Source: an uncultured delta proteobacterium (GTDB taxonomy: Bacteria; Desulfobacterota; Binatia; UBA9968). From it: DNA of 64,000 nucleotides. The stretch covers positions 1 to 64,000 of the forward strand of contig CAVTUQ010000008.1 in the NCBI GenBank assembly GCA_963737905.1, written 5' to 3'. Position 1 is the first letter of the stretch. Each line of letters opens with the position of its first letter. Position numbers and translations under genes: made by a program. Shown here piece after piece: positions 51,811 through 64,000 of this stretch. The notes below the pieces were generated by a model. It did no database searches and was not told the DNA's origin. It worked only from the letters and a program-made list of their open reading frames with translations.

Positions 51811-51826
51811 CGGCATATGCGTTGCT
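51811..51826 (+). promoter_or_regulatory. sigma54 promoter of PII-amtB operon 1
   Basis: CGGCATATGCGTTGCT, GG-N10-GC. Confidence 0.75.
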
Positions 51827-51835
51827 AAGGGTTAA

Positions 51836-52219
<384 letters not shown>

Positions 52220-52246
52220 CAAAATAAAGATAGAGGAGGACGAATA

Positions 52247-53719
52247 ATGAAACGTGATTTTTGCAAGCGCTTTGGCGGGTTTTTGCTGCCAGGAATTCTC
52301 GCCTTGATTCTGATTCCCGCATTGGCTTACGCGCTGGACGGCAAGATTTTCAATGCCGAAGCCAAGAAATTGGAAGCCGTACCGGAAGCCAAGTTTTGGG
52401 TGGACACGATATGGACGGTCATCACGGCGATGCTGGTCTTTTTCATGCAGGCCGGCTTTGCCATGGTGGAAGGCGGATTCACGCGAGCCAAGAATACGGC
52501 GAATATCATGATGAAAAATTTCATGGACTTCGCCATGGGATCACTCGCCTTTTGGCTGATCGGCTTTGGCATCATGTTCGGCAACGGCAACGCCCTCTTC
52601 GGCACCACGGGATTTTTTGTGACGGCCGGTACCGGCGCGCTTTATGATGCCCTCAACTGGACAAGCGTACCGACTTTGACCGCGTGGTTCTTCCAACTCG
52701 TCTTTGCGGCGACGGCAGCGACTATTGTCTCCGGGGCGATGGCCGAACGAACAAAATTTGTCTCGTATCTGATCTATAGTTTTTTTATTTCTTTAATTTT
52801 CTATCCGATCGTCGGTCACTGGATTTGGGGTGGTGGCTGGCTCGCCAGCATGGGCATGCTCGACTTTGCCGGCTCAACTGTCGTTCACTCGGTGGGAGGA
52901 TGGTTTGCGCTGGTCGGGGCCATCATGTTGGGTCCCAGGTTGGGAAAATACGACAAGTCGGGAAAGCCTCTCGCTATACCTGGCCACAGTCTCTCACTGG
53001 CCACCTTGGGGACTTTCATCTTGTGGTTTGGTTGGTTTGGTTTCAATCCCGGTAGCACCATGGGGGCCGATGTGGAAGCGATCTCGCTCACGGCCACCAA
53101 CACCAATCTCGCGGCGGCGGCAGGCGGAATTTCAGCGATGCTTGTGTCATGGGTCCTGTTTAAAAAGCCTGATCTTTCTATGGCACTTAACGGTGCCCTC
53201 GCTGGTCTCGTGGCCATCACGTGCGCCTGTGCTTTTGTCGATCCGTGGGCATCGATTGTATTCTTTGGTGTCGTCCCCGGGGCCGTCGTCGTGCTGTCCG
53301 TTATAATGTTCGACAAGATCAAAGTTGACGATCCGGTCGGGGCCATTTCCGTACACGGCGTTTGCGGTTCATTGGGAACGCTTCTTCTAGGGTTCTTTCA
53401 TACCAAACTAGGGTTTTTGTACACCGGTGCAACAGACTTCCTGTTCACACAGGCAGTGGGAGTAGCGAGTGTCTTTGCGTTTTGTGTGGTTGGTGCGTTG
53501 CTTCTTTTCGGATCGATCAAAGCTATTGTCGGATTACGTGTTTCGGAAGAAGAAGAAATCGAAGGCCTTGATATCAATGAACACGGCAACATCGCATATC
53601 CGGACTTTGTATCGACGATGTCAGGACTGTCCAGGTCGTTCGCTTCCCCTGCAACCGGAATGGGGCAGCAGGCTGCTCATCCTTCGGCAGTGGTATTGAC
53701 TCAGGAAACGGGCAAATAA
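52247..53719 (+). CDS. amtB: Ammonium transporter
   Basis: FMQAGF, FQLVFAATAATIVSGAMAER, DFAGSTVVH, WFGWFGFN, DDPVGAISVHG. Confidence 0.95.
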   Translation: MKRDFCKRFGGFLLPGILALILIPALAYALDGKIFNAEAKKLEAVPEAKFWVDTIWTVITAMLVFFMQAGFAMVEGGFTRAKNTANIMMKNFMDFAMGSLAFWLIGFGIMFGNGNALFGTTGFFVTAGTGALYDALNWTSVPTLTAWFFQLVFAATAATIVSGAMAERTKFVSYLIYSFFISLIFYPIVGHWIWGGGWLASMGMLDFAGSTVVHSVGGWFALVGAIMLGPRLGKYDKSGKPLAIPGHSLSLATLGTFILWFGWFGFNPGSTMGADVEAISLTATNTNLAAAAGGISAMLVSWVLFKKPDLSMALNGALAGLVAITCACAFVDPWASIVFFGVVPGAVVVLSVIMFDKIKVDDPVGAISVHGVCGSLGTLLLGFFHTKLGFLYTGATDFLFTQAVGVASVFAFCVVGALLLFGSIKAIVGLRVSEEEEIEGLDINEHGNIAYPDFVSTMSGLSRSFASPATGMGQQAAHPSAVVLTQETGK

Positions 53720-53739
53720 TAAAAGAAGAGAGCCGTTTC

Positions 53740-53775
53740 CCGTCGGCTGGCTCCATAATCGGAGCCAGCCGACGG
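53740..53775. terminator. 15-bp perfect hairpin after amtB1 (terminator or 3' stabiliser)
   Basis: CCGTCGGCTGGCTCC-ATAATC-GGAGCCAGCCGACGG; no clear U-tract. Confidence 0.5.
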
Positions 53776-54195
53776 AAGGAAAGCCTACCCAGAGTTCTTT
53801 GCAATGATGATTCAGTGCCGGCCCAGTTTGGTTTCCCGTCTCAAAGGCGTCGTTTCTTAGGCACGATTGCTTCTCCTTCAAATCGCGGCGACTGCCGAAT
53901 CTCCAGTGGGCAATCATGCCGCGGTCGGCGATTCTAAAGTGCGGCAAAGTGCGCTTAACTCGTTGGCAGCTCATGCCAAGGGCGTGAAATCGCGCAATTT
54001 GATTATCCGTTCTAAATCGGCTAAACCGTCGATCGGACTCGCGACAGGTTTGCGCCGCGATTACCGGAGTTCGATGTGAAAATCCGGTTTATTGATTGAT
54101 CGAATTCGGCACCAAATCTTCTTGAGCGGTTACAGTGGCTCAGATCGTAAATCGATCGAAGACGCGATTGTCGCGAACGGTTAGAGCGAGCTTAC

Positions 54196-55758
54196 ATGAA
54201 GCCTTCGATTACGATCAAAAAGCGCCGGTTGGCGCCCGGACCATCAGGCGAGTATGATGCCTCGTTTAAAGAGTACGTCATCGCGATCGTTCTCCCTTTG
54301 CTCGTAACCGCTGGGTCATTGGTTCTCGAGTCGGTCGCCGGCCACAGCGCGGTTCCTTCCCTGTATCTCCTGTTGGTCGTTGTTCTCGGACTTAGATTGA
54401 GTCGAGGTCCGGTATTAGTCGCGGCCGTGAGCAGCGCGCTGGCGTGGTATACGGTGTTCATCCCACCGCGTTTTGCTTTTCATATCGGCACTCTCGAGGA
54501 GATGCTGATCTTTAGCACCTTCTTCGCGGTGGCGATGGCGATGGGACACTTGACGAGCCGGCTACGTTTGAGCGAGATGGGCGAACGAAGGCGACAGCAG
54601 CGTACGGCCGCGCTTTACCAGCTTGTGCATCAAGCGGGCCTGGCACCCGATCTTAACAGCGGACTCAGCGCGGCGATCAGGCTCATCGAGACGCTCTTCG
54701 ATGTGCGCGCCGCCCTTTTACTGCGTCGCTCAGATCATACACTGGCTGCGGAAACGCATACGGCCAGTTCTTTTGCACTTTGCGAAAGGGAATACAGCGC
54801 GGCAATATGGGCCTTCAGCCATGGGACGCCGGCAGGAAAGTTTACCGACACCTTTCGGGATTCGGAGGCCCTGCATCTACCGCTTCAAGCGGGCACCACT
54901 GCTGTGGGCATCCTGTCAATCCTTCCCTCTCCTGGAACAAATCTCGATCTTCCAGAAAGGGAGTTGCTGGAAACATTCGCCGTGCTCATCGGGACAATCC
55001 TGGAGAAAGACCATCTGCTCCAAGACCTCAAGCACGCGGAAATCCTTGAGGCCTCGGAGCGCCTGCACCGCGCGCTTCTGCAAAGCGTTTCGCACGAGCT
55101 CAAGACTCCTTTATCGGCGATCCAAACCGGCATTGACGCTCTCGGGAAGCAAGTGGGCAGCGGCGAAGAACGACGACAGATGACCCTTCGGGAGATCCAG
55201 CAGGCGCTGCGGCGCCTTCACCGCGTAATCAACAATTTGCTGAATATGACCCGCATCGAATCAGACGTGATTTATCCAAAGTTGGACTGGTGCGAAGTTG
55301 GCGAACTTATTCAAGCTGCCATCGATCTCGCTGCCGACGGCATCGGCGATGATCCGATCGTAGTGGAAATAGACGGAGATCTGCCGATGGTCCGGGTGGA
55401 TCAACCCCTCCTGGAACAATGTCTCTGCAATCTTTTGCTTAACGCCGCTTCCAATAGCCAACCGAGAACAAAGGTAATTATTCGCGCGGGAGTCGCCGAT
55501 AACCGGTTGATCCTCTCGGTGCTCGACGAGGGCAAAGGAATCCCTGAGTCGGATTTGCCGCGCATCTTTGAAACCTTTCACCGTGGAGTAGAGGCCCCTC
55601 CCGGTGGCACCGGGCTCGGCCTTGCAATCGTGGACGGCTTCGTGCGGGCGCACGGTGGAAGTGTGGCCGCAACTAATAGACAGCCGCGGGGGGCAGAATT
55701 CGTGATAACGATTCCGGTTGAGACTCTGCGATTGGATGCACTGGAGAGCTTGGCGTGA
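54196..55758 (+). CDS. KdpD-like sensor kinase lacking the N-terminal KdpD/Usp domains
   Basis: DUF4118-like TMs (FIPPRFAF), GAF-like region, SVSHELKTPL, NLLLNA, GGTGLGLAIV. Confidence 0.88.
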   Translation: MKPSITIKKRRLAPGPSGEYDASFKEYVIAIVLPLLVTAGSLVLESVAGHSAVPSLYLLLVVVLGLRLSRGPVLVAAVSSALAWYTVFIPPRFAFHIGTLEEMLIFSTFFAVAMAMGHLTSRLRLSEMGERRRQQRTAALYQLVHQAGLAPDLNSGLSAAIRLIETLFDVRAALLLRRSDHTLAAETHTASSFALCEREYSAAIWAFSHGTPAGKFTDTFRDSEALHLPLQAGTTAVGILSILPSPGTNLDLPERELLETFAVLIGTILEKDHLLQDLKHAEILEASERLHRALLQSVSHELKTPLSAIQTGIDALGKQVGSGEERRQMTLREIQQALRRLHRVINNLLNMTRIESDVIYPKLDWCEVGELIQAAIDLAADGIGDDPIVVEIDGDLPMVRVDQPLLEQCLCNLLLNAASNSQPRTKVIIRAGVADNRLILSVLDEGKGIPESDLPRIFETFHRGVEAPPGGTGLGLAIVDGFVRAHGGSVAATNRQPRGAEFVITIPVETLRLDALESLA

Positions 55759-56459
55759 ACGAAAAGGCAACCGCACTGATCATAGACGACGAGCCGCAGA
55801 TTCGCAGGCTGCTCCGCATTGTTCTGGAGCAAGAGCATTACCGTGCGCTGGAATCCGATAGCGGCCGCCACGGCCTTTCTGAGGTAGCGCTTCGTAGACC
55901 GGATGTCGTGCTATTGGATTTGGGGTTGCCGGACATGGACGGGTTGGAGGTGCTTAAACGGGTGCGCCAGTGGAGCCAGGTACCGGTGCTGATTCTCTCC
56001 GTAAAAGACAGCCCGGAGGATAAAGTTGCCGCTTTAGACGCCGGGGCGGACGACTATGTGACCAAGCCCTTCGAAGCCACCGAACTTCTAGCGCGGCTGC
56101 GGGCGATCCAACGGCGCGCTCCTGCCGGTACCGAGAACGCCCACTTCGAAGCTGGCCATCTCGCCATCGACTTCAGCAGTCACACTGTGACGGTCGAGGG
56201 CCGGGAGGTCAAACTGACTGCGACCGAGTATGCGTTGCTAAAGCTGCTGGCGCTGCACGCCGGAAAAGTTGTTACCCACAAGCAGCTGCTACGTGAGGTG
56301 TGGGGACCAAACGCGGAAGAGCAGTCGCAATATTTACGAGTTTATATGATGCATCTACGCAAGAAGATCGAAATTTCCGCAGGACCCGAAAGACTCTTAA
56401 GAACGGAAAGCGGGATCGGTTATCGTCTTGTAGCTCCACCGCACACGCCTCAGGGCTGA
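55755..56459 (+). CDS. KdpE-like OmpR-family response regulator
   Basis: LDLGLPDMDG, ALDAGADDYVTKPF, QLLREVWG, YLRVYM..LRKK.E, TESGIGYR. Confidence 0.9.
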   Translation: MNEKATALIIDDEPQIRRLLRIVLEQEHYRALESDSGRHGLSEVALRRPDVVLLDLGLPDMDGLEVLKRVRQWSQVPVLILSVKDSPEDKVAALDAGADDYVTKPFEATELLARLRAIQRRAPAGTENAHFEAGHLAIDFSSHTVTVEGREVKLTATEYALLKLLALHAGKVVTHKQLLREVWGPNAEEQSQYLRVYMMHLRKKIEISAGPERLLRTESGIGYRLVAPPHTPQG

Positions 56460-56589
56460 AGAGCTAAGCCGCTATTGTAGTGCCCCTAAGGCTTCTTTGC
56501 GTATAAATGCTTCGAGAGGGGCGGGCCTTCAGTCACATAGATAACTCTCCTGATTGGTTATTTCACGAACCTTTTCGGTGAGGTTTTGC

Positions 56590-56626
56590 TGCTTAGGATT
56601 TGCGCAGCTTGCTTAAAGCGTGGGCA
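56590..56626. promoter_or_regulatory. Tandem TGC-N11-GCA enhancer boxes
   Basis: TGCTTAGGATTTGCGCA (56590) and TGCTTAAAGCGTGGGCA (56610), 20 bp apart. Confidence 0.7.
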
Positions 56627-56759
56627 ATTCATTTTGAACTGTCTGATGTTGTCCAAGGGGTATTAGCGCAAGTGATGTCATAAAAAATTAATAAAAATTT
56701 ACTTTACTAAAATTAAATAAAAATAAAAATTACTTGTCACCGCTGATATTAACCTACTA

Positions 56760-56775
56760 TGGTATATCTGTTGCT
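56760..56775 (+). promoter_or_regulatory. sigma54 promoter of PII-amtB operon 2
   Basis: TGGTATATCTGTTGCT; AT-rich tract between enhancer and promoter. Confidence 0.72.
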
Positions 56776-56983
56776 TGCTCAGCGACGAAATTTTCATCCA
56801 CCAATCGGTCAACGACCGGCTCAATCATTAAGCAACTCAGCATGAGTGCGCGGATCACGTTTTTTTGCGTGATCTGAAAAAAATCCTCAATCATTTCCAG
56901 CTTTATTATCCCGCGTCCCGCGACGAGCGATGGTGGCATCGCGCTTGCTCCTAGCAGCGCAAGGGTTGGCCGGTTCGCCGTAG

Positions 56984-57352
<369 letters not shown>

Positions 57353-57381
57353 GAGAACAGACTAGGAAAAGGGGAGGAAAA

Positions 57382-59145
57382 ATGGAACGAGGAAAATATA
57401 GGACTATCTTTGCGTCCTTGGTCGGAGGGCTTTGGATGTTATTGTTTATGGGGTTTTCATTTGCTGCCGAGGAAGCTCCGCCACCGGCGGGTGGAGAACC
57501 GCCAAAAGCCGAGGCTCCAGCGGCTGCACCCGCGGTGCCCGCGCCAAAGCTGCCGCCGTATTTTACGGCCACGAGCCCGGACCCCAAGACGACGTTGTGG
57601 CCGGATCCGACAGGTGCAAACTCCGGTGTCTGGGCGGCGCCGGCCGGAGACGGCAAAGGAGATCTCCCGGAGAAGCTGTCCGTTCAAGACGTCTACGACC
57701 GGATGGCGCACAACCTGTTCGCGATCAATTTTGTCTGGGCGCTTGTCACCGGCTTTCTCGTCATGTTTATGCAGGCGGGCTTTATGATGGTCGAGACCGG
57801 TCTATGTCGCGCGAAGAACAGCTCCCACACCGCAGCGATGAATCTGATGATTTACCCACTAGGTGGACTCGGGTTTTGGATCTATGGCTTTGCGATCGGC
57901 TGGGGCAACTGGTGGAACGGACCGGTGCCCCCAGGTTGGTTTGCCTCTCTCGGTCCCGGTCTGTCGATGTTGAATGGCGGTTGGGGGTTGGGTGCGGCGG
58001 TGGACGCTGCCGGGAAAGCTACGGGGGCATTCACGTATGGCATCATTGGAACGACGGGTTGGTTTCTCACGGGCGTCGCCAATGACGTTGCCGTCATGGT
58101 GCTTTTCTTTTTTATGATGGTCTTCATGGATACGACGGCGACGATTCCCACTGGAGCGATGGCCGAGCGCTGGTCATGGAAGAATTTCCTTCTCTACGGC
58201 TTTTGGGTAGCACTTCCCTATTGTATCTATGCGAATTGGCTCTGGGGTGGCGGTTGGCTAGCGCAAGGTGGCATCAATTGGGGTCTTGGGCATGGAGCGG
58301 TGGACTTTGCCGGTTCGGGTGTTGTTCACGCGATGGGGGGGATCATTGGGCTGGCTGGCGCGATGGTCATCGGTCCCCGTATTGGCAAATACGATTCGCA
58401 AGGCCGGCCGAAGGCCATGCCTGGCCATAGCGTACCGATGGTTGTAGCAGGTACCTTTATCCTAGCTTTTGGCTGGTTTGGGTTTAACCCGGGTTCTACC
58501 CTTGCCGGTACAGATCTACGCATCAGCTTCATCGTGGTGAACACGATGCTCGCCAGCTTTACCGGATCTCTCTTCGCTATGTTTACGCTCATGGCCAAGG
58601 GGCTCAAGCCAGATACGACAATGATGTGCAACGGTATGCTCGCGGGGCTCGTGGCAATCACCGCGCCTTGTGCATTCGTCAATCCCGTGGGGGCGGTGAT
58701 CATCGGTGCAGTTGCCGGTATCCTTGTCGTGCTCAGTGTTTTCTTCTTCGAAGCGCGTGGCATTGACGATCCGGTCGGCGCCATCTCCGTGCACGGTACA
58801 AACGGTCTCTGGGGCGTGTTGTCCGTAGGTATTTTTGCGACCGGCGAGTACGGCGCAGGCTGGAATAGCGTGGTGCGCGACGAGATGGTGAAGGTCTATG
58901 GTTCAGACGGCGTCCGCGGTCTCCTATACGGTGATTTCTCCCAGTTCATAATGCAGATCATAGACTGCGCGGTCGTTGCGGTGTTTGGCTTTGTCATGGC
59001 CTACATCTGGTTCAAAATCAGCGACCTGATTACGCCGATCCGCGTCAGCGTAGAAACCGAGACGGAGGGGCTCGACGGCCCAGAGATGGGCGTCCTCGGT
59101 TACCCGGACTTCCAGCTCCATCAGGGATCGAGGATTGTGGAATAG
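57382..59145 (+). CDS. amtB: Ammonium transporter with long N-terminal extension
   Basis: FMQAGF, DFAGSGVVH, FGWFGFN, DDPVGAISVHG; signal peptide plus Pro/Ala-rich extension. Confidence 0.93.
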   Translation: MERGKYRTIFASLVGGLWMLLFMGFSFAAEEAPPPAGGEPPKAEAPAAAPAVPAPKLPPYFTATSPDPKTTLWPDPTGANSGVWAAPAGDGKGDLPEKLSVQDVYDRMAHNLFAINFVWALVTGFLVMFMQAGFMMVETGLCRAKNSSHTAAMNLMIYPLGGLGFWIYGFAIGWGNWWNGPVPPGWFASLGPGLSMLNGGWGLGAAVDAAGKATGAFTYGIIGTTGWFLTGVANDVAVMVLFFFMMVFMDTTATIPTGAMAERWSWKNFLLYGFWVALPYCIYANWLWGGGWLAQGGINWGLGHGAVDFAGSGVVHAMGGIIGLAGAMVIGPRIGKYDSQGRPKAMPGHSVPMVVAGTFILAFGWFGFNPGSTLAGTDLRISFIVVNTMLASFTGSLFAMFTLMAKGLKPDTTMMCNGMLAGLVAITAPCAFVNPVGAVIIGAVAGILVVLSVFFFEARGIDDPVGAISVHGTNGLWGVLSVGIFATGEYGAGWNSVVRDEMVKVYGSDGVRGLLYGDFSQFIMQIIDCAVVAVFGFVMAYIWFKISDLITPIRVSVETETEGLDGPEMGVLGYPDFQLHQGSRIVE

Positions 59146-59250
59146 CAACGCCGAGAGCCGCGTTTCGCCCAAAATACGACTCTCACTGGTCCGTTGCATG
59201 ACAGCGAATTTTCCGATTCGGCTGAAACAATCTACTCGTGTTCATTTCGT

Positions 59251-59287
59251 TGGCTAGCATTTGGGCATGACGCTTAGTGTTTGGGCA
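59251..59287. promoter_or_regulatory. Tandem degenerate TGC-N11-GCA enhancer boxes
   Basis: TGGCTAGCATTTGGGCA (59251) and CGCTTAGTGTTTGGGCA (59271), 20 bp apart. Confidence 0.65.
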
Positions 59288-59380
59288 GTTTTCATGTGAA
59301 TCATCATCCCAGCACGTTCTCTACGACAGGAAAGTGGTGATTTTCAATAAGAAAAAGATTTGCTGATCCATGAAAGGCTG

Positions 59381-59396
59381 TGGCATGCGAGTTGCT
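59381..59396 (+). promoter_or_regulatory. sigma54 promoter of the glnB-glnA operon
   Basis: TGGCATGCGAGTTGCT. Confidence 0.78.
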
Positions 59397-59468
59397 GATT
59401 CAGGACTTATTTTCTCGAGAAAAGTTTCAGTCGAAAGTCTTCGCTCCCGGCTTCCATTTTTAGATTAA

Positions 59469-59825
<357 letters not shown>

Positions 59826-61384: not shown

Positions 61385-62131
61385 ATGGACGAGGTCCTAG
61401 TTTTTCAGCACGACCCGTTTGAGGGTCTGGGTTTTTTTGCGGAGGTATTGGAAAAGCAGGGAGCGAGTTTTCGAACGATCCGGCTTTTTCATGGCGAGGT
61501 GCCTGCCGAGGATTGGGAGGAAACCAGCGCTCTCATCATTCTTGGTGGGCCGATGAGCGTGTCTGACGAGGAACAATATCCGTTCCTTCGTTGGGAAAAG
61601 ACGATTATCCGCGCGGCCATAGACGACGCAGTGCCCCTCTTGGGAGTCTGTTTGGGTGCGCAGCTTATCGCGGCCGCTCTTGGTGCGGAGGTTCATCACG
61701 GACCGGTGAAAGAAATCGGTTGGTATCCGATTTCAATCACACCGCATGGGCAGGTGGATTCATCGCTTGGGTACCTTCCCGAAAACGCGGTGGTGTTTCA
61801 ATGGCACGGCGACGGTTTTGGTATGCCTGCCGGCGCGCAACGCTTAGCGTCGTCCACCTATTATGAAAATCAGGCGTTTCGCCTGGGCAAAAACATCTAT
61901 GGTCTCCAGTTCCATCTTGAGATGACGTCGGAAATGATTGAGCGATGGATCGATGAACGTTCCAAAGACCTCGCCCAGGTTCCTTACATTCATCCGGACA
62001 AAATAGTCAGTGATACCCAAAACTACCTGCCCACCTTGAAATATTACGCGGAAAAGTTTCTGTCAGAATTCATCCGTCGCGCGACCAAACCGAAAAACAT
62101 AAGAACAAAAAAAGGCCACGCAAAAGTATGA
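61385..62131 (+). CDS. Class I glutamine amidotransferase-like protein
   Basis: LGGPMSV, GVCLGAQ (Cys), FQWHGD, QFHLE (His-Glu). Confidence 0.9.
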   Translation: MDEVLVFQHDPFEGLGFFAEVLEKQGASFRTIRLFHGEVPAEDWEETSALIILGGPMSVSDEEQYPFLRWEKTIIRAAIDDAVPLLGVCLGAQLIAAALGAEVHHGPVKEIGWYPISITPHGQVDSSLGYLPENAVVFQWHGDGFGMPAGAQRLASSTYYENQAFRLGKNIYGLQFHLEMTSEMIERWIDERSKDLAQVPYIHPDKIVSDTQNYLPTLKYYAEKFLSEFIRRATKPKNIRTKKGHAKV

Positions 62132-62715
62132 GGAGGGTCCTGGTCATAGACGACCATGTTCCCTCCCGCGACAATCTAAAACGGGCTCTGGCTGCCAGTG
62201 GTTGTCAGATTGTCGGCGAGGGAATGAGCGGCAAGGGAGCGGCCCAGTTAGCTTCGGCCACGGTCCCTGATGTAATTTTGATGGCGGTGGGCCTGTCTGA
62301 TCTGGATGGGATACGCGCTGCGCGGAAGATCATGCAGGCAAAGCCCGTTCCGGTTATTCTTGTCAGCAGCCACTACGACCCCGAAACTGTCGAGCGCGCT
62401 AAACGTGCCGGCGTGATGGGTTATCTTCTCAAACCTCTGCGAGACGGCGAGCTGCTACCCACAATCGAAATTGCAGTGTCTCATTTCCAAGAGTTTGTTG
62501 CCCTCCAAAAAGAAAACGAGAATCTCAAGAAGACCCTCGAAGCACGGAAGATCATTGAGCGCGCGAAAGGGATTTTGATGAAGAGCCAAGGACTTTCGGA
62601 GGGGGAGGCATTTTCCTTAATTCAGAAAAAGAGCATGGACTTACGTAAACCGATGGGTGAAATCGCGGAAGCGGTGATCTTGAGCGCAGAGCTCTCTAAA
62701 GGGAAGAGCGATTAA
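62128..62715 (+). CDS. ANTAR-domain regulator with a pseudo-receiver domain
   Basis: VIDD...DVILMAV (phospho-Asp replaced by Ala)...YLLKP; ANTAR RKIIERAKGILM...E.EAF..IQKKSM. Confidence 0.92.
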   Translation: MRRVLVIDDHVPSRDNLKRALAASGCQIVGEGMSGKGAAQLASATVPDVILMAVGLSDLDGIRAARKIMQAKPVPVILVSSHYDPETVERAKRAGVMGYLLKPLRDGELLPTIEIAVSHFQEFVALQKENENLKKTLEARKIIERAKGILMKSQGLSEGEAFSLIQKKSMDLRKPMGEIAEAVILSAELSKGKSD

Positions 62716-62741: not shown

Positions 62742-62758
62742 TGCTGAATTCCCGGGCA
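62742..62758. promoter_or_regulatory. TGC-N11-GCA enhancer box
   Basis: TGCTGAATTCCCGGGCA, about 80 bp upstream of a sigma54 promoter. Confidence 0.5.
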
Positions 62759-62840
62759 GGGAGTGATTCTTTGATACGCAATCCACTTGTGAGGCGATGA
62801 AATAACACCGTAGGCAAGAACTTTTTTCCCAAGATAGCGC

Positions 62841-62856
62841 TGGCATAACCGTTGCT
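62841..62856 (+). promoter_or_regulatory. sigma54 promoter
   Basis: TGGCATAACCGTTGCT. Confidence 0.78.
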
Positions 62857-62871
62857 ACTCAGCGAGTCAAG

Positions 62872-62936
62872 GGCAACGTTGCCATCGGTCGAGCAAAGGC
62901 GCTCATCGTGCAAGCGGTGGAGCGCTTTTGTTTTTT
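62872..62936 (+). ncRNA. ANTAR-binding dual-hexaloop RNA with overlapping intrinsic terminator
   Basis: P1 GGC-AACGTT-GCC, 7-nt linker, P2 GAGC-AAAGGC-GCTC (A1/G4 in both loops); P2 overlaps terminator AAAGGCGCTC...GAGCGCTTTT-GTTTTTT. Confidence 0.88.
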
Positions 62937-62955
62937 GGTTGATAAGGAGGTCTTT

Positions 62956-63156
62956 ATGGCTCGGCGTCACGAGAAAACAATCACCGGAAAAATATTCGAG
63001 AATATCCTCTTTTTGGAAGAGGTCTTTGGTGACAAGGCCGATACGGATATCCCGGATGTACCGGTTCTCGAATTAGCAAAATGCTTTGAATTGTCTCATC
63101 GAAGAACGTTGCATCCCACCAGAGGACGCCAGAAGCCCTGGCCGCTTTGGAAATAG
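62956..63156 (+). CDS. Unknown 66-aa protein under sigma54 and ANTAR control
   Basis: RBS TAAGGAGG then ATG; MARRHEKTITGKIFENILFLEEVFGDKAD...WPLWK. Confidence 0.7.
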   Translation: MARRHEKTITGKIFENILFLEEVFGDKADTDIPDVPVLELAKCFELSHRRTLHPTRGRQKPWPLWK

Positions 63157-63723: not shown

Positions 63724-64000
63724 ATGAAAAAAGGTGTGGTGGGTTTGTGGATTTTCAGCTTGTTTTTCTTGCTCAGCACGGTATACGCGGCTGAGCCGGA
63801 ACAGAAACCAGCTGCGCCGGAACAGAAACCGGCCGAGCCGGCGGAAAAACCTTTAGAACCAGGGTGGCTAAGCTTAGATAGCAGTGTGGGCGTTGCGGAC
63901 AATTGGATCGCACTTAATAAGTCAGCTGTGGAAAACGCTTTAGGGTTCAGCATTGGCGGGTACTTGGACACGAGTTACACTTGGAGTTCACGTCATCCGA
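63724..64000 (+). CDS. Exported protein, probable outer-membrane beta-barrel/porin (runs off the window)
   Basis: RBS AGGAGG; signal peptide MKKGVVGLW...VYA, PEQKPA repeats, then IGGYLDTSYTW beta-strand. Confidence 0.6.
   Translation, partial: MKKGVVGLWIFSLFFLLSTVYAAEPEQKPAAPEQKPAEPAEKPLEPGWLSLDSSVGVADNWIALNKSAVENALGFSIGGYLDTSYTWSSRHP

Follow-up and report, generated by a model that had tools for sequence, protein, structure and literature searches.

We describe here a regulatory locus in a 64,000-nucleotide stretch of DNA (the window; positions 1-64000 of contig C8 of a 46-contig, 6.7-Mb metagenome-assembled genome, MAG) from an uncultured delta proteobacterium, in which a 195-residue protein with a CheY-like receiver (REC) and an ANTAR domain is encoded immediately downstream of glnB, glnA, and a gene for a class-I glutamine amidotransferase (GATase). 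The explanation that best accounts for the evidence as a whole, and which we regard as reasonably probable, is that this protein is a phosphorylation-independent REC-ANTAR antiterminator of a nitrogen regulon. The receiver lacks its phospho-acceptor aspartate, a loss shared throughout its clade, and a leader with the hallmarks of an ANTAR target lies directly 3' of the regulator gene. Open reading frames (ORFs) and Pfam matches place the four genes in one orientation on the + strand, with the following features:

59381-59395, + strand: sigma54-type -24/-12 match TGGCATGCGAGTTGC, by consensus match, about 105 nt 5' of glnB; the presumed operon promoter
59487-59825, + strand: glnB (PII), PF00543 118 bits
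59942-61357, + strand: glnA, glutamine synthetase (GS) type I, PF00120 (Gln-synt_C) 454 bits, PF03951 (Gln-synt_N) 110 bits
61385-62131, + strand: stand-alone class-I GATase-like protein of the TM1158 type, PF00117 68 bits
62128-62715, + strand: aspartate-less receiver and ANTAR antiterminator, 195 aa, PF00072 78 bits, PF03861 76 bits
62284-62286, + strand: GCG codon for Ala53 at the phospho-acceptor position, from the sequence and its alignment to Rv1626 and EutV
62841-62855, + strand: sigma54-type promoter match TGGCATAACCGTTGC in the leader of the 66-aa ORF
62872-62883, + strand: hairpin P1, GGC[AACGTT]GCC, a hexaloop with A1 and G4; compensatory stem changes
62891-62904, + strand: hairpin P2, GAGC[AAAGGC]GCTC, its 3' half doubling as 5' arm of the terminator; compensatory stem changes
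62895-62937, + strand: intrinsic terminator, with a stem at 62895-62929 and a T-run behind it; P2 and this stem cannot form together
62956-63156, + strand: 66-aa protein ORF, the first gene 3' of the leader, conserved by tblastn
63724-64000, continuing to contig position 64770, + strand: start of an outer-membrane porin gene, BBP2/OmpL-like, PF07642 132 bits for the full protein

The start codon of the ANTAR gene (ATG, 62128-62130) and the stop codon of the GATase gene (TGA, 62129-62131) share an ATGA junction, such that the intergenic gap is -4 nt, as compared to 27 nt between glnA and the GATase gene. A preliminary description of this DNA had reported both the co-oriented array and the ATGA overlap of its last two genes, and ORFs, Pfam, and the sequence itself bear this out. 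No T-run terminator-like site is present between genes on the + strand from glnB to the ANTAR gene, with weak consensus hits inside coding sequence only, and glnB-glnA-GATase-ANTAR probably constitutes a single sigma54-driven operon.

The receiver has lost its phospho-acceptor aspartate

The C-terminal ANTAR domain, the only one in the genome, matches PF03861 with 76 bits against a cut-off of 27.3, and the N-terminal receiver matches PF00072 with 78 bits. Full-length phmmer alignments relate the protein to Rv1626 (1s8n, E 9.6e-39) and EutV (6wsh, E 2.1e-35). The codons ATG (62281-62283) and GCG (62284-62286) specify M52 and A53, and A53 aligns with the Asp of Rv1626 'vimDVkm' and EutV 'vlmDIqm', so the phospho-acceptor Asp at the end of beta3 is absent. 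The replacement of this Asp by Ala, proposed in the preliminary description from the GCG codon at 62284, thus agrees with both alignments. The absence of an adjacent cognate kinase, also claimed there, holds as well; the nearest kinase gene (54196-55755) is about 6 kb upstream and overlaps its own OmpR-type regulator.

Full-length orthologues of the regulator are found in approximately 35 of the 101 genomes of the order. Translation of 30 loci, one of them L011 of the unpublished genome G075, gives Ala at the phospho-site for 26 and Ser for four (L006-L009), and three further loci (L038, L040, and L041) likewise have Ala, giving Ala or Ser in all 33 of 33 order-level orthologues examined; the preliminary description had held that orthologues keeping Asp and having a kinase would count against it, and none of these keeps Asp. 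The motif [LM/LI]A[VI]GL is present in 118 of the 120 closest database clusters. Among the best 150 representatives of 50%-identity clusters there are 116 with Asp and 16 with Ala, the Ala forms crowding the top ranks, and regulators more distant than the order-level orthologues keep Asp. The alignments show the missing aspartate to be a clade character, and, as judged from these sequences, the canonical site of the regulator cannot accept a phosphoryl group, through a loss that is conserved and not accidental.

The Ala clade also differs from the Asp forms elsewhere in the pocket, with H10 (E in the Asp forms), S13 (I), G55 (K), L56 (M), S81 (A), and H82 (Y or F), and it retains D8, D9, S/T80, and K102. 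Positions 10 and 82 presumably lie on the rim of the pocket, as expected from the general CheY fold. The combination of shared changes and retained residues argues that the receiver has been remodelled rather than left to decay.

A dual-hairpin leader 3' of the regulator gene

ANTAR substrates are described in the cited passages of Ramesh et al. (PMC3369931) as two short hexaloop stems with A1 and G4, the second of which competes with a terminator, and the leader at 62872-62937 fits this definition. The preliminary description had singled out 62867-62940 as an antitermination region, and an ANTAR-type dual hairpin and terminator are indeed located there. The core of P2, GCAAAGGCGC at 62893-62902, matches the GnfR site CAGGCAANGGCGCC. 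No Rfam family matches anywhere in the window at gathering thresholds.

Leaders of this type were collected from related loci as well as the genome of the window, 34 in all, and a simple parser could fold 32 of them. In all 32, both hairpin loops have G at position 4 and the P2 loop reads AA[A/G/C]GGC; the P1 loop starts with A in 22 and with G in ten, and A1 is therefore relaxed in P1. Because two alignments (A1 and A2) shifted P1 of two leader classes by 3 columns, base pairs were counted only on the 20 rows that MAFFT placed in register (alignment A3); of the 14 leaders excluded, 12 were set aside for register or long linkers and two (L007 and L030) as near-duplicates. In the 20-row alignment 87.6% of pairing cells can pair, compared to 34-50% with the 3' partners slid, and two-sided compensatory changes occur in six of 11 pairs versus 2.0 +/- 0.9 in shuffles, a number that none of 500 shuffles reaches. 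We conclude that the regulator is a real antiterminator of the GnfR, NasT, and NitR kind, and thus a known kind of switch.

A small predicted regulon

A covariance model built from the 20 leader rows was used to score 150 of 5635 first-look candidates in this genome. The window leader (C8:62869) scores 53.5 bits, a site at C25:30541 that is a member of the training set scores 45 bits, and a site at C30:93897, outside of the training set, scores 19.1 bits (E 0.16); an extra leader at C35:36243 came from a pattern scan. Weak model matches on C25 (at 145080), C34, C27, C13, C2, and C38 were rejected as leaders since no terminator lies downstream, and C25:145080 is additionally inside a coding region.

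The genes behind these leaders are varied. In the window the first is that of the 66-aa protein, which has tblastn matches in 19 related loci at 51-88% identity, is likewise the first gene behind the leader there, and has a conserved core, KIF[ED]NI[LI]FL..VFGD...[DE][IL]P..PVLE[LM]A..F[ED]L, and a C-terminal WPLWK; it has no match in Pfam or NCBIfam and no usable protein-atlas hit. The C30 site precedes a Rieske_2 (NirD-like) gene and then a siroheme-synthase-like gene (both by Pfam), and the C35 site precedes an NMT1_2 (NrtA-like) binding protein gene (Pfam) followed by those for an ATP-binding cassette (ABC) permease, an ATPase, and a cyanase, these last three recognised by reading of the translations and not by a family scan. 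The C25 leader is followed by the gene for a 275-aa protein with no Pfam hit. This segment (C25:30541-31490; L044 663-1487) combines a strong leader and its own sigma54-type promoter with a product that has a predicted signal-like N-terminus and no family match.

We considered whether NrtA-like proteins encoded 3' of the ANTAR gene in some relatives could be NasS, and rejected this. By reading of the translations they have a twin-arginine-like signal sequence, and because they also head ABC operons behind leaders they are targets rather than partners.

Candidate sigma54 promoters

Scanning the 64 kb with the pattern TGGCAYN5TTGC gives three exact matches, at 56934 (80 nt before the glnB at 57014), 59381 (before the glnB at 59487), and 62841 (before the 66-aa ORF), all of them upstream of nitrogen genes, and a copy with one mismatch lies at 51811, 70 nt 5' of the first PII gene. 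A sigma54-type element is also visible upstream of most leaders that precede genes of the 66-aa-ORF type, and the regulated leaders presumably start from sigma54 promoters of their own. The genome encodes RpoN (on C37) and has 31 enhancer-binding-protein matches, one of which is near the NtrC cut-off (546 versus 558.6 bits). An AGGCA-N5-TGATT-like element at 62748-62764, just 5' of the sigma54-type promoter of the leader, recurs in L047, L051, and L054 and may be an enhancer-binding-protein site.

The GATase and its pairing with the regulator

The nearest solved structure to the GATase is 1o1y (E 1.3e-38), followed by 9xfs, 3l7n, and 3m3p (to E 1.4e-27), and the protein has the triad Cys89-His177-Glu179 within GxCxGxQ and HxE motifs. 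It scores 228.4 bits with NF005458 (the PRK07053 glutamine amidotransferase equivalog), under the cut-off of 250. It resembles these TM1158-type proteins in length and in its Cys-His-Glu motifs; what sets it apart is the fixed place of its gene in a nitrogen locus, next to those for an antiterminator and a porin. The titles of the TM1158-type PDB entries give no function, and a literature search on YfeJ/TM1158 returned only plant gamma-glutamyl peptidase structures and unrelated mentions.

Of 121 database homologues, 119 have an intact triad. In two loci of the order (L016 and L017, from genomes G044 and G032) the catalytic Cys is replaced by Gly (GIGLGAQ/GVGLGAQ) with the His, the Glu, and the remaining protein conserved, and the same change is found in the other two of the 121 homologues (P0301 and P0304); these Gly forms look like natural pseudo-enzymes. 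There are two GATase classes within the order, the orthologues with at least 62% identity, which occur in 23 genomes and, as a frameshifted copy, in G073, and a paralogue of about 40% identity that is present in almost every genome of the order and which in the window's genome lies among housekeeping genes.

An orthologous GATase gene is immediately 5' of the Ala/Ser regulator gene in 19 of 35 genomes of the order (that of the window, G024, the L003 MAG, G026, G044, G032, G062, G085, G067, G088, G083, G042, G068, G080, G089, G084, and G073, together with G100 and G034 by coordinates only), and the ATGA overlap is present in 14 of 16 loci with both genes adjacent, as well as in the window. The two are separated by a porin gene in G002 and are on different contigs in G020. 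No orthologous GATase is present in the remaining 14 of the 35 genomes; three (G011, G075, and G079) have no GATase match at E <= 1e-20 and 11 have the paralogue class only. The regulator gene directly follows glnA in six of these 14 and follows a PII gene in L031. Conversely, five genomes have a GATase orthologue without an adjacent ANTAR gene, in the orders glnA-GATase-small ORF-porin (G097), glnA-GATase-porin (G058 and G016), and PII-amtB-GATase-porin (G064 and G020).

A wider survey of 401 genomes across the phylum (REC-ANTAR homologues at E <= 1e-35) revealed 28 loci outside of the order. In ten of these, all among the 14 closest (42-53% identity), a TM1158-type GATase gene lies immediately 3' of the regulator gene, in the reverse order to that in the window and with gaps of about 10-40 nt, and behind it come a sigma54-type promoter, then a leader of the P1-P2-terminator design, and then a gene for a porin-like protein (of the BBP2, Gcw_chp, or Porin_4 family, where Pfam gives a score). 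The phospho-Asp is present in each of the ten regulators and the triad in each of the ten GATases, and the presence of a GATase thus does not depend on that Asp being lost. In a maximum-likelihood tree, which is unrooted and in which a badly extracted L050 row is ignored, the outside GATases cluster with the order's unlinked paralogue clade and not with the glnA-linked clade of the window (split support 99/96). Since two GATase clades are paired with a REC-ANTAR protein and a porin, the association is either old or recurrent. The GATase-ANTAR pairing, whose lack of conservation would have counted against the preliminary description, is thus conserved, in 19 of the 35 genomes and ten of the 28 outside loci, but 14 of the Ala/Ser regulators lack such a GATase and five GATases lack an adjacent ANTAR gene. 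We found no description of a pairing of ANTAR and a glutamine amidotransferase in the full-text literature searched, where two papers that contain both terms concern other matters, to judge from titles and the first lines of their abstracts; the search did not extend to subscription journals or the supplements of cited papers.

A glycogen synthase gene is located 5' of the pair in six of the ten outside loci. In these (L051, L054, L055, L057, L060, and L050) the Asp-bearing pair follows glgA, with a gap of about 50 nt as measured in L051, and this neighbourhood suggests that genes for carbon storage and for nitrogen scavenging may be expressed together.

In G080 (L029; G080:C15, 1492-2817, minus strand) the GATase and REC-ANTAR form one 442-aa frame, owing to a single base difference at the ATGA junction. 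None of the 120 best database matches is fused and none covers more than 56% of the frame; a relative with 96% identity is a separate 248-aa protein, and the fusion may therefore be an assembly error. We have set it aside as Rosetta-stone evidence, as a singleton or an assembly indel. No GATase domain is found in any of 23 scanned ANTAR representatives of greater than usual length, in which the additional segments are kinase pieces or have no Pfam hit.

A further fusion may be considered on the GATase side. In G100 (C12:118799-119521) the GATase match lies inside a 747-aa open frame. In the window, glnA and the GATase gene share a reading frame with 30 nt from stop codon to start codon, so loss of the glnA stop codon would fuse GS and the GATase.

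A model for the regulator and its alternatives

From these arrangements we infer the use of the promoters, binding to RNA, control through abundance, and a role for the GATase, as follows. The regulator gene is the last of the glnB-glnA-GATase-ANTAR operon, which is probably driven by sigma54, and because of this position nitrogen limitation would raise the regulator together with glutamine synthetase; most likely the regulator would act by its abundance, set via the glnA operon. It would then bind the hexaloop hairpins P1 and P2 in nascent leaders started from further sigma54 promoters, and with P2 held closed the overlapping terminator would be blocked, so that transcription would proceed into nitrogen-scavenging genes. 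Read-through would reach the 66-aa ORF and the porin gene, the cyanate/nitrate ABC transporter and cyanase genes, the NirD-like and siroheme synthase genes, and that for the secreted protein without a family match. The circuit would be a feed-forward cascade such as that from GnfL/GnfM to GnfR in Geobacter, minus the kinase step. The GATase, a conserved companion of the regulator-porin module with its triad intact, is most likely a co-expressed hydrolase of amides or gamma-glutamyl compounds, a reading whose likelihood is somewhat below even but still exceeds that of a sensor for the regulator. Its linkage to the porin gene is no looser than that to the regulator gene, which would suit an enzyme that scavenges an amide or gamma-glutamyl compound after import.

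Several observations weigh against this model of an antiterminator controlled by abundance. Abundance control alone leaves unexplained the conserved remodelling of the rim with D8, D9, S/T80, and K102 kept, the 4-nt overlap with the GATase gene in 14 of 16 loci, and the persistence in two genomes of a GATase with Gly for its catalytic Cys. The promoters are candidates assigned solely by consensus match, and with up to one mismatch the pattern occurs 15 times in the window versus 8.5 expected, with three of 100 shuffles reaching 15; the argument for them therefore rests on the positions of the exact matches and not on their number. The match on C30 is a weak one, and the leader on C35 is absent among the model matches listed for the 150 candidates scored. 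No leader was found 5' of glnA, amtB, or the GATase gene in this genome, and the regulon is therefore small and consists partly of genes without an assigned function.

The preliminary description had favored a different input, with a glutamine-binding GATase (or PII) as the partner that gates ANTAR activity. On this view the REC-ANTAR protein would be held or set free according to whether the GATase has glutamine bound, as in AmiC-AmiR and NasS-NasT, such that the glutamine level and not a kinase gates antitermination. The retained ATGA overlap is in keeping with this, as is the pairing, in reverse order and with a different GATase clade, in ten outside loci; both genes are, in every arrangement seen, 5' of a sigma54 promoter and leader, the usual slot of NasS, AmiC, and EutW, and in G044, G032, and two of the 121 database homologues the gene stays intact after Cys has given way to Gly. 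The single open frame of G080 could be added, but it is unmatched among its 120 best database relatives. An orthologous GATase is missing from 14 of 35 Ala/Ser-regulator genomes, however, and it persists beside glnA or amtB and a porin gene without an adjacent ANTAR gene in G097, G058, G016, G064, and G020; moreover, the paired regulators in other families keep Asp in ten of ten cases, and the intact triad in 119 of 121 homologues weighs against this reading as well. Complex prediction with the GATase (alignment A4, 16 rows) and REC-ANTAR (A5, 16 rows) gave a score of 0.00 in both runs, made without controls, and argues neither for nor against binding. Site loss and pairing are thus conserved, yet the solitary regulators, the solitary GATases, and the Asp-bearing pairs do not support the idea of a GATase that replaces the kinase, and we regard a sensory GATase as unlikely, though deserving of consideration.

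Signals that bypass the GATase are a further alternative. A small molecule or metal could occupy the remodelled pocket at D8, D9, H10, and H82, or a different protein such as PII or feedback-inhibited GS could act on it (compare TnrA/GlnR in Bacillus). In favor of this, six rim positions changed along with the Asp and are conserved in the Ala clade, where D8, D9, S/T80, and K102 are kept, the regulator gene directly follows glnA in six loci and a PII gene in one (L031), and regulators without a GATase must receive any signal elsewhere. No candidate is adjacent in every locus, however, and that residues 10 and 82 belong to the rim is deduced from the general CheY fold and not from a measured model; we consider an input of this kind improbable, although it receives whatever likelihood the enzyme and sensor readings of the GATase leave over. 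Loss of the key catalytic residue might alternatively be taken as a sign that the receiver has decayed, with the protein inactive or a weak, unregulated RNA binder, but a protein that is 54-91% identical over more than 20 genera, has an ANTAR domain above the Pfam cut-off, and has target leaders conserved with covariation makes this scarcely credible. An antiterminator that acts by abundance, with the GATase as an enzyme beside it, remains the reading that we prefer.

Other features of the locus

Further genes lie upstream of the regulator operon, again all on the + strand:

51881-52216, + strand: PII (ORFs/Pfam)
52247-53716, + strand: amtB (ORFs/Pfam)
54196-55755, + strand: DUF4118-GAF-HisKA-HATPase kinase
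55755-56456, + strand: OmpR-type regulator, with a one-base overlap with the kinase gene
57014-57352, + strand: PII (glnB)
57382-59145, + strand: second amtB

Three PII genes and two amtB genes are thus contained within 8 kb (51881-59825). The kinase and OmpR-type pair (54196-56456) is wedged between two PII-amtB modules and may be a further signalling pair of the nitrogen or potassium type. The second AmtB, of 587 aa, has a long N-terminal extension rich in Pro and Ala.

Relationship to known antitermination systems

ANTAR antitermination of nitrogen genes is already established, with GnfR, NasT, NasR, NitR, and AmiR as examples, and the comparisons here refer to the passages cited. GnfR of Geobacter sulfurreducens binds CAGGCAANGGCGCC and is phosphorylated in vitro by GnfK, and the logic of the GnfL/GnfM to GnfR cascade was demonstrated experimentally (Ueki and Lovley 2010, PMC2995071). 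The window regulator is similar in being a REC-ANTAR protein for nitrogen genes with terminators behind putative RpoN promoters, in its own gene apparently being under the master sigma54 system, and in a P2 core that corresponds to the GnfR site, overlaps the terminator, and follows the sigma54-type match at 62841. It differs in having Ala at the phospho-site and no dedicated kinase, such that the phosphotransfer of GnfK/GnfR has no counterpart; in its targets, which are porin, small ORF, cyanate/nitrate, and nitrite genes rather than nif genes; and in its location in a glnA operon with a GATase. In its link to glnA it resembles NitR of Clostridium saccharobutylicum, an ANTAR regulator whose gene likewise accompanies glnA and which turns on genes of nitrogen assimilation when nitrogen is limiting (reviewed in PMC6316151), although NitR belongs to a different phylum and the passage of the review that describes it does not include a GATase.

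NasT of Paracoccus and Pseudomonas is under the control of the ligand-binding partner NasS and not of a kinase (PMC3795266, PMC10783516), and AmiR, which has an aspartate-less receiver, is similarly controlled by AmiC (PMC2995071, PMC4395418). The window regulator shares their independence from a kinase, but no NasS- or AmiC-type gene adjoins it, its neighbours being glnA, GATase, small ORF, and porin genes, and the only NrtA-like protein found (on C35) is, unlike NasS, a transporter component encoded behind a leader. Its receiver also differs from that of AmiR, as described in those passages, in keeping D8, D9, S/T80, and K102. Aspartate-less receivers (ALRs) are a described class that is reported to be enriched among ANTAR proteins, with AmiR as the classic example (Maule et al. 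2015, PMC4395418). The window receiver resembles them in that it has lost the phospho-Asp, retains the first acidic residue and the Lys, and is conserved in this state; the passages of that survey name neither a nitrogen-linked Ala clade nor a GATase companion. What is new here is an aspartate-less clade with a pocket signature, together with a phylum-wide GATase-ANTAR-porin module.

The input signal of most ANTAR proteins is not known. A bolder proposal would be that TM1158-type GATases are glutamine-reading partners of nitrogen antiterminators throughout the phylum, occupying the sensor slot of the regulator operon in two gene orders and with two GATase clades, and that in the window's order, where the regulator would have dispensed with phosphorylation and rebuilt its receiver pocket, its sole input is the GATase or a ligand of the new His-lined pocket; we hold this to be rather unlikely, but if true it would constitute a new kind of glutamine sensor that is directly coupled to RNA antitermination. 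If the GATase is merely an enzyme, the locus still defines a compact feed-forward circuit in an uncultivated sediment lineage, with a small regulon that counts a conserved 66-aa protein and a porin without a known substrate among its members. The GATase and the regulator provide a testable pair for how cells that have no glutamine sensor of the GlnD/NtrB type may route nitrogen status into control at the level of RNA.

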